Shown here in pieces: positions 1 to 6,000 of a stretch of DNA of 10,350 nucleotides. The position numbers were made by a program. Source of the DNA: a virus (taxonomy: Duplodnaviria; Heunggongvirae; Uroviricota; Caudoviricetes); IMG/VR virus record IMGVR_UViG_2698536559_000019. The stretch is one strand, 5' to 3'. Positions within the stretch are counted from its first letter, which is position 1. Every line of letters starts with the position of its first letter.

Positions 1-3000
1 TTTATCTGTATCTTTATCTGTATCTTTATCTGTCGTGACTCGTCGTGACATGTGCGTGACATTTCGTGACGCGCCGTGACAATCGCCATTTTGTTCCCGC
101 TTTCTTTCCCTCTCTCGCTGCGCCCTCTTGCGCTCTGCAGGAGATTTTGCGGTTTGCGAAATATTGCCGTTGTCCTCTTTCAGCACCTGGCGTTTTTCCC
201 ATCCAGTGATTAAATCACCATCAAGTACCCGCCCCTGCATCGTCTGTAAAATTGAATCAATTACCTCTTCTGTCACGTCGAGCGCACTTGCCAAATCTTC
301 TGTCGTGACATCAATGTGACCTCGCGTGACATTTCGTGACGCGCTCACCAGGAGGTGGATATACACAGCCATCACTGTTGCGATTGGCTGTCCTGACACC
401 CTGGAAATTGTTCGCCACTTAGGATCGTTTGGCATGTCATGCCATAATCTGAGCCAGGCGTTAGCCATACTCACCTCTTCTGATACCGAATCTTTTTACT
501 CACGAGTTGCCGGAAGCGATTCGATATGGCTATTGTCAGTCAATGTACTGCCACAGAATTTCCTGCCGGGCCACCACGGTTCATCTGATTGAAACCGGCG
601 ATTGCCACTGCGACAAAATCATCAGCGTCTCTCACCAGTCGCTCCCGCGTCTCCACCAGCTCCCGAAAATAAGCTGAACTGTGGCTGCGCATTCGGGCCA
701 CCAGCAGAGGCGGCATTGCTTTTTCGATAGCTGGTAACAACACCTGAATTTTTTTAACCGCATCAGGGGTGTCTTTCTCCACCCAGCGGAAAATTTTCTG
801 AGTATTGCGAGCCAGGGCTTCCGGATGGCTGTCGTCATACAGTTCCGGGAACGTCATTCCCAGCTCGAAATACGCTTTGGTAATTTTCGCAGCAGGTACT
901 TTTTCGCCGTCCGGATGTGCCCAGGCATTCATTGCCATGCGGATGTGTTCATGCTTGATTTTCATGAATCAACTCCATCAGATAAGCATGCACTACAATC
1001 ACCTTCAGCATGAACTACATGCGTTTGCCCCAAACGAATGCCGCTAGCATACTCAGGCCAAATAAGCTCCCAATCATGGGGTCGTAGCTCCGCCCTACTT
1101 ACTTGGCCTTCCGTCGCAGATTCGATCATAAGGGCGCGGGTTGGAGATATAGCTGCTCGTCCGGACGCCATTTGCGATAAGTAAGATGGCGATACACCAA
1201 GTCTGGCCGCGAATTTCTTAGCATCACCAACCCTCAATGATTTAATAAACTCTTTTAATGTCATACCTTCCTCGGTTTAGTGTTTTCTTGCGAGTTTAGT
1301 GTTTAATAAACCATTAAGTCAAGTATTTGCTTGTTTAGTGATTACTAAAGATAATTACCACATGCAGAAAAAAGAAATTCGCCGTTTACGTCTCAAGGAG
1401 TGGTTTAAAGATAAAACTCTGCCACCCAAAGAGAAGAGCTACCTATCTCAACTAATGAGTGGGAGGGCCTCGTTTGGAGAAAAGGCTGCCAGAAGAATAG
1501 AGCAAACATACGGGATGCCGGAAGGGTATCTGGATGCGGAATACGCAGAACAACCGGAGATTTCTCCACCACATGCAGGGTTAACGTCTAATCAACTGGA
1601 ATTATTGCAGATTTTTTCAGCCTTCCCTGAGGATGAGCAACGCCAGATAATCAGCGAGTTAAAGCAGAAAAAAGAATCAATGGAAGATCTCATAGCGAGA
1701 TGGATTGCGGCGCAAAAATGCCGCCGCGCCTAAGTTATAAAACCGGAGGAAACATGAATAGAGCCCTTTCACCAATGGTTTCTGAATTTGAAACCATTGA
1801 ACAAGAAAACAGTTACAACGAATGGCTGCGTGCGAAAGTAGCAACGAGCCTTGCAGATCCGCGCCCAGCAATTCCCCATGACGAAGTTGAGCGCAGAATG
1901 GCAGAACGCTTTGCTAGAATGCGCAAGGAACGGAGCAAGCAGTAAAATGTTACCCGTGTTATGGCTTGAAAGCGCAGATACCGACCTAGATGATATAACC
2001 AGTTATATTGCTCGTTTCGACATAGATGCGGCTGAACGCTTATGGCAGCGATTAAGGGGTTGTGTGCTGCCGTTATCCGAACATCCGTATTTATACCCAC
2101 CAAGCGACAGAGTACCTGGCTTGCGTGAGATTGTGGCCCACCCTAACTATATAATTCTATACCGCGTAACAACATCAAGCGTTGAAGTAGTAAACGTGAT
2201 CCACGCAAGACGCCAGTTTCCCTAACTTTAACTACCAATAGAAACATAACAACCGCAACGACTTTACCAAAAGCGTTGTGTTTGTTACGCCCCACGGTTT
2301 AGTTTTTGCTTGACTTAAGTTTAATGTTTATTAAACTAAAAATACCAACCCACCCCGCCCCACAGAACGCCGGGCAATACTTCGAGTTACCAGGCAGTGG
2401 TCAGGGGGTAAGTAGCCAGCCCGAGGCGTAAGAACATGACGGCAGGGTTCAACTTTAATAACTATGCAGCAGGTTTTTGTTCCGCTACCCCGGCGTTAAG
2501 GGGAAACAGAGGGTTTCTCAGTGGGCGAAGTCAAACATCAGAATGGAAGGCATCCCGGGATCGGCAAAGAAGCGGCAATGACGCTTTATATTGACATCAG
2601 CGCCATTGCCGGACAGGTAAGAGTTATCAGAGCGGTAACTAAGCGGTATGCGCTTTTACTTCAGAAAGTCTCTGGTGAGTGCACCGAAGATATTGTCAAC
2701 GATTTCGTCATCGAACTGCGAGGACTCATCTTCAGTTACAAGGTGACCACAATTTTTGCAGATGGCTCCCGCGAAACTGTCAGAGCCATGCGGTTTAAAG
2801 GATGTGTCAAAGACTTCGCCGCCACATTCTGGGCAAGAAAACTTGATTGTATTCATAACCAATTTCCTCTCGAGTAACAGCTCCCTCAGAGGATACCACC
2901 TCGCCTGACGTGGTTAAAAGCAGGCAACGCTAACCACAAGGAGCCGACATGCAGAAACGAGAACCCGTCATCATCGCGCCAGACTATACCGATGATGAAC

Positions 3001-6000
3001 TTTATGAGTGGATGCGCCAGAAAATTAATGCAGCGCAGGATCTGAAATGGGCCAATGAAGCCAGGGCTAAGCAGGCTGAAAATCTGTCCGCTCTGGAGCA
3101 GGATATCACCAATCTGGAAAAAGCAGCGGCATTAAGCATTGCCAGAATGATTACATACCCACGTTAATAGCTAACCAACGAGGCTAATAATGGAATTTAA
3201 AGATTTACCAAAAGAAATCCAGACAATTGCTGCAACGACTCTCGGTGATAGTCTGGTGAAAATTGACCCGGCATACACCAAAAAAGAAACCATCGATAAT
3301 ATGGTTCGTAATGTGCGCAATGCTTTTTCTGGGCTATATGGTTCTGATAATCAAAAGCAGGAAAGCGATGTTAATAAACGGGTAATTTCTGTTTGCGTGA
3401 ATGGCCATGTTCTTTCATCAATCAAAACAGAAACGGCGACAGTCTTCGATTGCCTTTGCATTGTACAGAGCCTTGTTGATGCCCTGTTTCGTTCAGTGAA
3501 TTTAGAAAATGATGCAAATCTGCGAGGGCGCACAATAGCACATCCATATGCACATACTTTAGGCTCTGTGGATATCAAAGATCCCACAAATCTTTAATGA
3601 AATAGTTAACGCGAATTGTACTTGCTCTTTCAGTTGCTTTCAGAATACGCGTTGAAACTGCTGGCGGTAATTTGGTATTCCATTTATTAAAATCATGCCC
3701 GGGAAAGTACTCTTCGAAAATACTTTTAACTGCAGACTCGCCTATTGAAATGCTGCTTACCATGCGATTTTGATAAAGGCATTTAGCAATAAGAGTTGAT
3801 TTTAACATTCACCCTCCTGAGGGTTGGTAATTAAGGAGTTCTCCACGGGTGAAGTGGAGTGCGTGCGCCGGACACGGGTGAACATCCGGCACTGACAGTT
3901 TACTGAAAGGATATTTCTCTGAAAAGTCAGAGCATAACGCGAAAGCGCGCGGCGGTAAGTATGGCGGGGTTATTCCTTCCCCGTTGAGGACACCGGGTTG
4001 TCAGGTTGACCATACGCTTAAGTGACAACTCCGCTGCAACGCCCTCTGTTATCAATTTTCTGGTGACTTTTGGCGGTATCAGTTCTACTCCGTGACTGCT
4101 CTGCCGCCCTTTTTAAAGTGAATTTTGTGATGTGGTGAATGCGGCTAAGCGCACGCGGAACAGTTAAAACCAAAAACAGTGTTATGGGTGGATTCTCTGT
4201 ATCCGGCGTTAATTGTTAACTGGTTAACGTCACCTGGAGGCACCAGGCACCGCATCACAAAATTCATTGTTGAGGACGCGATAATGGAAACGTTATTACC
4301 AAACGTTAATACGTCTGAAGGTTGTTTTGAAATTGGTGTCACTATCAGTAACCCTGTATTTACTGAAGATGCCATTAACAAGAGAAAACACGAACGGGAG
4401 TTATTAAATAAAATATGCATTCTTTCAATGCTGGCCCGTTTACGTCCGACACAAAAAGGATGCTGGCAATGAATACAGCATTTGCACTTGTTCTGACAGT
4501 TTTTCTTGTTTCCGGAGAACCAGTTGATATTGCAGTCAGTGTTCACAGGACAATGCAGGAGTGTGTGACTGCAGCAACCGAACAGAAAATTCCCGGTAAC
4601 TGTTACCCGGTCGATAAAGTTATTCACCTGGATAATAACGAAATCCCGGCAGGTCTTTAAAACAGTTCCGTAATAAACATCCGATTTCATTCTTATATGC
4701 CAGCAATGGCAGGGATTTGTTCACCCTTAAATCTGTAATGAGGTAAAACAAAATGAGTAAAGTCTTTATTTGCGCCGCCATTCCGGACGAACAGGCAATA
4801 AAGGAAGAAGGTGCAGTCGCTGTAGCTACTGCCATTGAAGCCGGTGATGAACGTCGCGCCCGCGCAAAATTTCACTGGCAATTCCTGGAACATTATCCGG
4901 CTGCTCAGGACTGCGCTTATAAATTTCTTGTCTGCGAGGATAAACCCGGTATACCCCGCCCTGCCCTCGATTCCTGGGATGCTGAATATATGCAGGAAAA
5001 CCGCTGGGATGAGGCGTCTGCTTCCTTTGTCCCGGTTGAGACTGAATCAGATCCGATGAACGTCACTTTTGACAAGCTGGCCCCTGAAGTACAGAACGCT
5101 GTCATGGTTAAGTTCGACACATGTGAAAACATCACCGTTGATATGGTGATTAGTGCGCAGGAACTGTTGCAGGAAGACATGGCAACATTCGACGGACATA
5201 TCGTTGAAGCGTTGATGAAAATGCCAGAAGTTAACGCCATGTATCCGGAGCTTAAGCTGCATGCCATCAGGTGGGTTAAGCATAAATGTAAGCCTGGTGC
5301 CAAATGGCCCGAAATTCAGGCAGAGATGCGCATCTGGAAAAAACGTCGCGAAGGTGAACGCAAGGAAACCGGAAAATACACGTCTGTTGTTGATCTCGCC
5401 CGCGCCAGAGCCAATCAACAGTACACTGAAAATTCAACAAGAAAAATCAGCCCGGTCATTGCTGCCATTCATCGCGAATACAAGCAGACATGGAAAACAC
5501 TGGATGACGAACTGGCCTACGCTCTCTGGCCTGGTGATGTGGATGCCGGAAACATTGACGGCAGCATCCATCGCTGGGCAAAAAATGAAGTTATCGACAA
5601 CGACCGCGAAGACTGGAAGCGTATCTCGGCATCAATACGCAAACAGCCTGATGCCCTTCGCTACGACCGCCAGACTATTTTTGGCCTTGTCCGTGAACGT
5701 CCGATCGACATTCACAAAGACCCTGTGGCACTGAACAAATACATTACTGAATACCTGACTACAAAGGGCGTGTTTGAAGATGAAGGAACAAATCAGAGCG
5801 CAACTGATACTCTCTCATCGCCAGTACCAGAAACTGATGCAGTGGAAACGGCAATTCCGGACAACGAAAAAACCGAATGCAAAGTGGAAATCGAACCATC
5901 TGTAGAGCGTGAGGGGCCGTTCTACTTCCTCTTCACCGACAAGGATGGCGAAAAATACGGTCGCGCAAACAAACTTTCTGGTCTGAATAAGGCGCTGACT

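Follow-up and report, generated by a model that had tools for sequence, protein, structure and literature searches.

Three small genes lie in the early-left (PL) operon of a CP-933P/Qin-type lambdoid prophage, within a 10,350-nt stretch of DNA (IMG/VR record IMGVR_UViG_2698536559_000019; hereafter the window, to which coordinates refer unless another locus is named). The open reading frame (ORF) list places gene 1 at 2949-3167(+), encoding 72 amino acids (aa), gene 2 at 3190-3597(+) (135 aa) and gene 3 at 3575-3808(-) (77 aa). Genes 2 and 3, the convergent pair with which we are mainly concerned, have 23 bp in common tail to tail (3575-3597), with both stop codons inside the common stretch. 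The coordinates and the convergent overlap given in a preliminary description of this DNA were reproduced, as were the ribosome-binding sites that it had called good, including GGAGG on the minus strand: AAGGAG at 2938-2943, 5 nt 5' of the ATG at 2949, for gene 1; GAGG at 3180-3183, 6 nt from the ATG at 3190, for gene 2; and AGGAGG (complement of 3813-3818), a strong Shine-Dalgarno sequence 4 nt 5' of the minus-strand ATG at 3808, for gene 3. The block had also been called AT-rich, and GC content does dip to 0.39-0.43 over 3151-3900, though only mildly compared with about 0.45-0.52 in the flanks. All three ORFs were matched end to end by PHROG profiles (phrog_1744, phrog_1363 and phrog_10348) and are annotated as coding sequences in near-identical genomes in RefSeq (counterparts WP_001171942, WP_074448913 and WP_000920491, in entries titled 'YdfC' or 'hypothetical protein'). 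The three small genes are real.

None of the three proteins had been recognised at the outset, which remains true of genes 2 and 3, whose products match only families without a function, but not of gene 1. This gene is ydfC of the Escherichia coli K-12 Qin prophage, with 97.5% nucleotide identity to K-12 ydfC (b1573) over 239 bp (window 2949-3187, that is, ydfC plus 20 bp); its product matched phrog_1744 over profile positions 1-68 of 68 (E = 1.6e-39) and is named 'protein YdfC' in RefSeq. YdfC is acidic, probably helical and has no assigned function; Pfam, NCBIfam and PADLOC returned weak coiled-coil noise only, and a phmmer search of PDB sequences gave no match.

K-12 Qin is collinear with the window up to 3187 and resumes at 3822 (3822-3948), with nothing in between. 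Because K-12 joins 3187 directly to 3822, the segment 3187-3821 is a discrete insertion or deletion of about 635 bp, whose edges lie 2-3 nt 5' of the ATG of the 135-aa gene and 13 nt upstream of that of the 77-aa gene. Of 5426 complete E. coli genomes, 646 (~12%) contain at least 80% of the segment, O157:H7, O26, O111:H8 and O145:H28 strains among them; it is also carried by 12 phage records, one of which is Escherichia phage Evi (LR597642). Genes 2 and 3 are a mobile cassette placed after ydfC inside the repressor-controlled dicBF/PL operon. Compared with the K-12 Qin dicBF operon (ydfA-ydfB-ydfC-dicF-dicB-ydfD), the window keeps ydfC, DicF, dicB and ydfD in order at 95-97% nucleotide identity, but it carries the 635-bp two-gene cassette, with one gene antisense, between ydfC and dicF, lacks 74 bp between the cassette site and dicF (K-12 locus L017, 3190-3263), and has ydfA and ydfB replaced by a PaaR2-PaaA2-ParE immunity and toxin-antitoxin (TA) region together with an antisense zinc-ribbon gene.

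The operon starts from a PL-type promoter at 2297-2344(+) (TTGACT at 2311-2316, a 16-nt spacer and TAAACT), which lies upstream of the three genes. An operator-like repeat, GTTTAGTnTTT, occurs in five copies, three of them in the repressor/cro intergenic region (1275-1346) and the other two at 2297-2310 and 2319-2332, just past parE and overlapping the TTGACT-16-TAAACT promoter. This five-repeat layout matches the OR/OL and PL933P arrangement published for CP-933P, in which PL933P, the corresponding promoter, is repressed ~100-fold by PaaR2 and YdaS, and in which no function was assignable to the ORFs downstream of PL933P (PMC8630535). The label of early-left operon that the block had been given is right, because OR-type operators, promoter and the PL933P data all support it (PMC8630535).

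Co-oriented 3' of the operator-flanked promoter lie the genes of two cell-division inhibitors, the DicF small RNA (4058-4109(+); 71.5 bits with Rfam RF00039, whose gathering score is 48) and dicB (4284-4472(+); Pfam DicB, E = 2e-37; NCBIfam CellDivInhibDicB, 131.6 bits), and ydfD (4469-4660(+); Pfam DUF1482, E = 4e-25), the last two with a 4-bp start-stop overlap. DicF follows ydfC by 890 nt, in dicBF order, and begins 250 nt beyond the 77-aa gene. It is processed out of a polycistronic operon transcript (PMC5069750), and the transcript that gives DicF must cross the 77-aa gene in antisense first. The preliminary description had put the block between the TA/immunity module and the recombination genes; PaaA2 and ParE are indeed upstream, but DicF, dicB and ydfD, of which it made no mention although they adjoin the block, come before the 826-aa exonuclease gene. 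Their presence downstream makes the block part of the well-known dicBF operon.

The convergent pair and its proteins

We assessed pairing in a census of 94 loci with a gene of the 77-aa family, drawn from IMG/VR, genomes and metagenome assemblies. A gene encoding the partner domain (the C-terminal part of the 135-aa protein, see below) was found on the opposite strand in 93 of the 94, and the lone exception is cut by a contig end. About 85 loci have an overlap of 23 bp, and four have one of 26 bp. Among the more distant members, a divergent 78-aa protein in Citrobacter (E = 2e-18) accompanies a divergent partner with an overlap of 51 bp, and in Burkholderia the genes for a 75-aa member (E = 8e-20) and its 92-aa partner (E = 4e-7) share 24 bp. 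Pairing is essentially obligatory from E. coli to Burkholderia, and the pair is an old conserved module made of an early-operon domain of ~75 residues and a convergent helical protein of 77 aa. The trio recurs as a unit as well, in that ydfC and the pair occur together in E. coli, and the Yersinia partner, a protein of 191 aa, carries a YdfC-like domain. Residues 29-88 of that protein show 38% identity to YdfC (E = 5e-11), and this domain fusion ties ydfC functionally to the pair.

The 135-aa protein, treated as a single gene unit in the preliminary description, turned out to be a two-domain fusion of which the C-terminal half is conserved, and the true conserved unit is this half together with the 77-aa gene. 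The full protein matched phrog_1363, a family without annotated function, with residues 1-130 on profile positions 1-138 of 139 (E = 3.8e-47). Its N-terminal domain (residues 1-61, 'MEFKDLPKEIQ...', 3190-3372(+)) was modelled by AlphaFold2 as a helical hairpin (helices 8-23 and 32-51) followed by a disordered linker, with a predicted local distance difference test score (pLDDT) <50 at 52-61. PHROGs 9419, 2151, 6937 and 33007 match residues 1-55/72 only, and the same N-terminus heads five E. coli/Salmonella prophage proteins with unrelated C-termini (P0044, P0046, P0049, P0051 and P0052); judged from these comparisons, residues 1-61 are a swappable module. The C-terminal partner domain (residues 62-135, 3373-3597(+)) was modelled as a beta hairpin (strands 65-70 and 73-79), two helices (85-99 and 102-111) and a low-confidence tail. 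It is homologous to stand-alone proteins of 75-80 aa in Dickeya, Serratia, Klebsiella, Xenorhabdus and others, which begin MSKSGRLVEV or MKKQGRIVTV and are always convergent with a 77-aa family gene, and its family comprises at least 96 clusters in Enterobacterales. Other N-terminal fusions carried by the partner domain are a ClpX-type zinc finger (P0116 and P0157), a 'MQFDNDKICKTFKV' segment and, in the 191-aa Yersinia partner, the YdfC-like domain. Within E. coli the 135-aa gene is mosaic: the O157 allele has residues 8-31 swapped, and another allele shows about 20 differences across residues 58-112.

Pfam, NCBIfam and PADLOC gave nothing meaningful for either the 135-aa or the 77-aa protein, and no PDB sequence matched the alignment profile of the partner domain. 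The products of genes 1, 2 and 3 are full-length members of PHROGs 1744, 1363 and 10348, catalogue entries that record neither the domain fusion nor the pairing. Grouping the 135-aa protein into one family with homologues from Shiga toxin (Stx) phages was rejected, PA2 gp25 having the N-domain alone in common with it.

These domain relationships bear on the proposal of the preliminary description that YdfC and the 135-aa protein are early host-takeover, anti-restriction or anti-defence factors made from PL, which we consider highly improbable. Small acidic proteins in an early-left position, with a swappable N-domain and fast-diversifying segments, do show typical counter-defence traits, and N-domain homologues sit among the accessory early genes of Stx phages, but no similarity was found to Ral, Lar, Ocr, Abc, Kil or any annotated PHROG, and the proposal leaves the obligatory convergent 77-aa partner unexplained.

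The 77-aa gene encodes a predicted small soluble five-helix protein without functional annotation. Its product matched phrog_10348, likewise without annotated function, over residues 1-77 of 77 (E = 1.1e-47). Homologues with 55-72% identity were found in Klebsiella, Dickeya, Xenorhabdus, Salmonella, Morganella, Yersinia and Serratia, and a scan of genome contigs, which gave 4 loci only, added Proteus and Photorhabdus. Searched against 1.84 billion representatives, the family profile returned 157 clusters, one of them from Burkholderia ambifaria, while tblastn with divergent family queries gave no further phage genomes among 50,697 records. The alignment contains 27 invariant columns, F70, I71, D73, L74 and W75 among them, and conserved residues include K3, S4, L6-L11, W43-N44-T45 and F70-W75. 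Across genera synonymous divergence (dS) is saturated whereas nonsynonymous divergence (dN) is 0.13-0.38, and the protein is under purifying selection. Alleles within E. coli are 99-99.6% identical. The AlphaFold2 model is very confident (pLDDT 97.3) and shows five short helices; the grand average of hydropathy is -0.13, with no long hydrophobic segment, and the isoelectric point of the family is about 5 outside E. coli. Fold comparisons gave no informative match among solved or viral structures, with a family member as the only Foldseek result against BFVD viral models, and the family profile matched no PDB sequence; a very confident model that lacks a structural neighbour may represent a new small fold. 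The protein matched no family in Pfam or NCBIfam (E ≤ 0.1), SieB included, or in PADLOC (E ≤ 1), and phrog_10348 was its sole PHROG match. None of the three proteins showed homology to Kil, Ral, Abc or SieB, the families that the preliminary description had named as examples, and Lar, Esc and defence models were likewise unmatched. Neither protein of the pair has a helix-turn-helix (HTH) motif or a consistent basic charge, and neither resembles a DNA-binding regulator. Control of the 77-aa gene by LexA was considered and rejected, with only two loose CTG-N10-CAG matches at inconsistent positions.

Within the overlap, one strand of 3575-3597 specifies the C-terminal helix of the 77-aa protein, which is structured (...FIKDLWDL), and the other the tail of the partner, modelled with low confidence (...IKDPTNL). 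An intrinsic bidirectional terminator at this site was rejected, as it holds only a 6-bp AT-rich inverted repeat (AAAGAT/ATCTTT) and the terminator scan was negative.

The breadth of the pairing makes it unlikely that these are two independent small genes packed tail to tail, with the 77-aa gene of E. coli a silent passenger. Lambdoid early regions are highly mosaic, and all the flanking genes change between E. coli and Burkholderia, yet the pair is kept, and its members co-diverge, with divergent 78-aa proteins accompanying divergent partners. A lack of any functional link would nevertheless suit the compactness of lambdoid genomes, in which lambda N and sieB abut without known protein-level cooperation, as well as the promoterless copy in E. 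coli, the occasional pseudogenes and the variation of partner alleles with no matching change in the 77-aa protein.

Strict co-inheritance of two small proteins would also be expected of an addiction or toxin-antidote pair that stabilises the prophage or its immunity region. The surroundings are suggestive, since DicB, DicF and YdfD of the same operon are toxic (PMC5069750) and a bona fide TA system, PaaA2-ParE, is next door. Convergent, separately promoted genes are, however, unlike the architecture of type II TA systems, no toxin, antitoxin, defence or PADLOC model was matched and no informative fold match was found; in addition, tandem genes of the 77-aa family exist without a partner, and the partner domain also occurs with a different antisense gene. 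We regard addiction as very unlikely.

Position relative to the early-left promoter

The relation of the pair to PL was clearest in Klebsiella (locus L012), Serratia (L008) and Yersinia (L011). In all three, the cI stop is separated from the partner gene by 180-230 bp in which the palindromes of the cI-cro intergenic region recur, and good promoters that overlap these palindromes point toward the partner (TTGACC-18-TATTAT, TTGACG-16-TAAACT and TTGACA-17-TAGATT, respectively); Serratia also has a terminator after cI and before the partner. Because OR-type palindromes and a promoter lie directly upstream, the partner is the first PL gene in these genera, and the 77-aa gene faces PL from about 0.5 kb. 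An extended -10 element, TGnTATCTT or a close variant (TGnTA(T/C)nnT), was found 39-43 nt before the 77-aa ATG in 17 of 17 distinct upstream regions from outside E. coli, and this conserved element is the putative promoter of the 77-aa gene itself. Between the stop of the 77-aa gene and PL, the Klebsiella and Serratia loci lack any terminator-like site, so that the two promoters face each other. After the pair in the PL direction, the Klebsiella locus carries a DicF-like terminator hairpin (3874-3922(-) of L012; GGCGGUGCCAG...CUGGUACCGCC followed by a U-run) in the same relative position as DicF in E. coli; it scored 29.9 bits on the Rfam DicF model, below the gathering score of 48, and the DicF seed region is not conserved. 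A conserved put/nut-like RNA structure around the 77-aa promoter was rejected, with fold z-scores of 0.0 to -2.1 and the sub-threshold Klebsiella hairpin as the only Rfam match.

This layout is that of lambda N and sieB. Lambda has OL1-3, then N at 35037-35438(-), abutted tail to tail by sieB at 34482-35036(+), and the topology of sieB, a gene running against PL and tail to tail with the PL-adjacent early gene, was found exactly in the Klebsiella, Serratia and Yersinia relatives. In lambda and P22 (where the N counterpart is gene 24), as in the pair, any transcript from PL necessarily runs antisense through the gene on the other strand; sieB of P22 is under the control of the antisense RNA sas (PMC12197685; PMC7067206). 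More generally, a gene that runs antisense to a lytic operon is typically an accessory locus (moron) with expression in the lysogen (PMC7067206). The proteins themselves differ. The 77-aa protein is small, soluble and helical and has no sequence or size similarity to SieB, which is about 185-190 aa (a 555-bp gene in lambda). SieB is a membrane protein, and the 77-aa protein showed neither homology to it nor the properties of a membrane-associated protein of ~185-190 aa. SieB is made in the lysogen from a promoter of its own and aborts superinfecting phages, with escape by way of Esc and sas; for the 77-aa gene, the conserved extended -10 outside E. coli bears on the first of these traits. The lambda genes merely abut, whereas those of the pair overlap by 23 bp, and the partner is not N-like: it occupies the PL-first position of an N-type antiterminator in the relatives, but it has no Pfam match, a near-neutral charge and, in the stand-alone proteins, a start without an arginine-rich motif (nut sites were not searched for). 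The pair in the window has the same orientation as lambda N/sieB but, unlike it, does not come first in its operon.

In E. coli, the pair comes after ydfC, about 1.2 kb from the PL-type promoter. A scan of 3809-4190 gave no minus-strand promoter-like site, and the upstream flank of the 77-aa gene that is common to K-12 (3822-3870(-)) has a CTCCAC-N7-GTGGAG hairpin at 3841-3859 but no recognisable promoter. The hairpin loosely resembles an element upstream of the extended -10 in other genera and may be what is left of a degenerate promoter region. Expression of the 77-aa gene in E. coli is uncertain because the conserved promoter has been lost there, although the ORF itself, which might have proved unconserved, is strongly conserved. 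The sole minus-strand promoter-like site near the gene lies farther off, between dicF and dicB (4219-4192(-), TTAACA-16-GAGAAT, 9/12); a match to consensus only, it would, if active, send antisense transcription across DicF toward the 77-aa gene.

Two promoters that face each other over about 0.5 kb, with no intervening terminator, raise the possibility that the pair is purely regulatory, the 77-aa promoter, and perhaps the protein, damping or gating PL read-through by interference and antisense pairing, with no exclusion or toxin activity. In this way the pair would adjust the choice between lysis and lysogeny and, in E. coli, how much DicF, DicB and YdfD is made. All downstream PL genes are transcribed through the 77-aa gene in antisense, a DicF-like hairpin comes right after the pair in Klebsiella and DicF 250 nt on in E. 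coli, and coliphage 186 is an established case of switching by interference of convergent promoters (PMC5001618). As at 186 pR/pL and lambda oop/cII, the promoter of one state opposes that of the other, and interference or antisense RNA can couple the two (PMC5001618); here, however, the facing promoters have two protein genes between them and there is no repressor gene on the antisense side. The strong purifying selection on both proteins and the confident fold are left unexplained, neither protein is DNA-binding-like, and E. coli keeps the ORF intact though its promoter is missing. We consider a purely regulatory pair fairly unlikely.

Roles considered for the pair

The preliminary description had suggested superinfection exclusion, anti-restriction or antisense control, and these are plausible by position, as lambda sieB is arranged alike. 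The role that we favour, tentatively and with somewhat less than even confidence, is a two-state switch between lysogen and lytic growth, or an exclusion module, modelled on the logic of sieB/esc/sas and on convergent-promoter switches (PMC12197685, PMC7067206, PMC5001618). While PL is repressed in the lysogen, the 77-aa protein would be made from its own promoter as an accessory factor of the prophage state, with a part in exclusion or abortive infection, or in keeping leaky expression of early genes in check. Once induction or infection activates PL, the 77-aa gene would be silenced by convergent transcription and by antisense RNA, and the PL-encoded partner would then appear and act with or against the 77-aa protein. 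The variable N-terminal fusions of the partner (the MEFKDLP domain, the YdfC-like coiled coil and the ClpX-type zinc finger) might serve oligomerisation or targeting. In the E. coli window, the 77-aa gene might be weakly expressed, or might act mainly as an antisense obstacle in the DicF/dicB precursor.

Several observations weigh against a switch or exclusion module. No homology to SieB, Esc, a toxin, an antitoxin or a defence protein was found, nor an informative fold match. The conserved 77-aa promoter is absent from all E. coli upstream regions compared, and homology to other genera stops 13 nt upstream of the E. coli ATG. The 77-aa gene is frameshifted at three loci, two of the E. coli type and one in Photorhabdus. 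Partner and 77-aa gene can also be found apart: a 201-aa E. coli protein (4001-4606(+) in L015/L016) combines both domains, the N-domain and the partner domain, with another tail of 66 residues after '...GSVD', and its gene again shares exactly 23 bp with an antisense gene, here an unrelated one for 63 aa (4584-4775(-), MTQEEKVMFLMRLAVETF...), which was rejected as a relative of the 77-aa gene (E = 0.63). A metagenomic contig (L112) carries tandem 77-aa family genes (3501-3734 and 3864-4100(+), E = 5e-17 and 2e-15) beside a glutaminyl-tRNA synthetase gene, with no partner gene or phage genes in view. That the overlap is so constantly 23 bp may follow from the invariance of the C-terminus of the 77-aa protein, with no selection on the overlap itself. 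Finally, there are ~20 partner-domain substitutions in an E. coli allele whose 77-aa protein is almost unchanged, and a partner that varies against a constant 77-aa protein is not what tight protein-protein co-evolution predicts.

A fuller version of the switch and exclusion reading, which we hold to be doubtful, makes the pair an unrecognised, widespread two-protein PL-proximal switch in temperate phages of Gamma- and Betaproteobacteria, with a new fold in the 77-aa protein. The 77-aa protein made in the lysogen would exclude phages or guard the early genes, and the first early protein together with convergent transcription would disarm it on induction; in enterohaemorrhagic E. coli (EHEC) and other E. 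coli, the module would gate the output of the DicF small RNA, DicB and YdfD. YdfC and the dicBF operon are already known, while the proteins of the cassette are catalogued only as unannotated families, and our literature search found no paper on the domain fusion, the obligatory pairing, the PL-proximal position or the N/sieB parallel.

The pair is a good target for study, being one conserved convergent pair that natively sits right behind PL and mirrors lambda N/sieB, with a 77-aa model whose lack of a structural neighbour may denote a new small fold. DicF and DicB influence cell division, metabolism, phage resistance and EHEC virulence regulation, and the pair lies within their precursor transcript in O157:H7, O26, O111 and O145 strains, such that an antisense gene at the cassette site could alter DicF and DicB amounts in the E. 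coli strains that carry it.

Other features of the window

Upstream of the PL-type promoter, the immunity region comprises a YdaT-like gene (540-965(-)), a YdaS/Cro-like gene (962-1264(-)), a PaaR2-like repressor gene (1362-1733), PaaA2 (1754-1945) and ParE (about 1947-2225). The zinc-ribbon gene ECs_2282 (2656-2862(-); 68 aa, CxxC...CxxC; NF047912, E = 1e-15) is a second small antisense gene in the PL operon, within the leader of ~600 nt before ydfC, and gave weak sub-threshold Lar-like matches (TIGR03655, E = 0.013; phrog_6422, E = 0.016).

Beyond ydfD, the gene at 4753-7233(+) encodes the 826-aa protein called an exonuclease, in which the match to a known domain (Rv2179c-like 3'-5' exoribonuclease, E = 1e-67) is confined to residues 642-814, and the ~640 residues before it include a long acidic low-complexity stretch rich in Q, E and P. 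An excisionase-like gene (7300-7551) and an integrase gene (7520-8539) follow, and ARAGORN found no tRNA gene in the window. An effector gene with EspF repeats, which we take to be TccP/EspFU-like, is present at 9343-9936(+) (alternative frame 9608-9955), with three 47-aa repeats (Pfam EspF repeat, E = 2e-74). The ORF may be truncated or frameshifted, because it stops abruptly within the third repeat (...QRLVQHLADAWH*). The sequence at 10081-10350(-), beyond the integrase and effector region, encodes the C-terminal end of a tail-fibre protein of a prophage (Pfam Phage_fiber_C, E = 3e-35), which suggests a second prophage in tandem.

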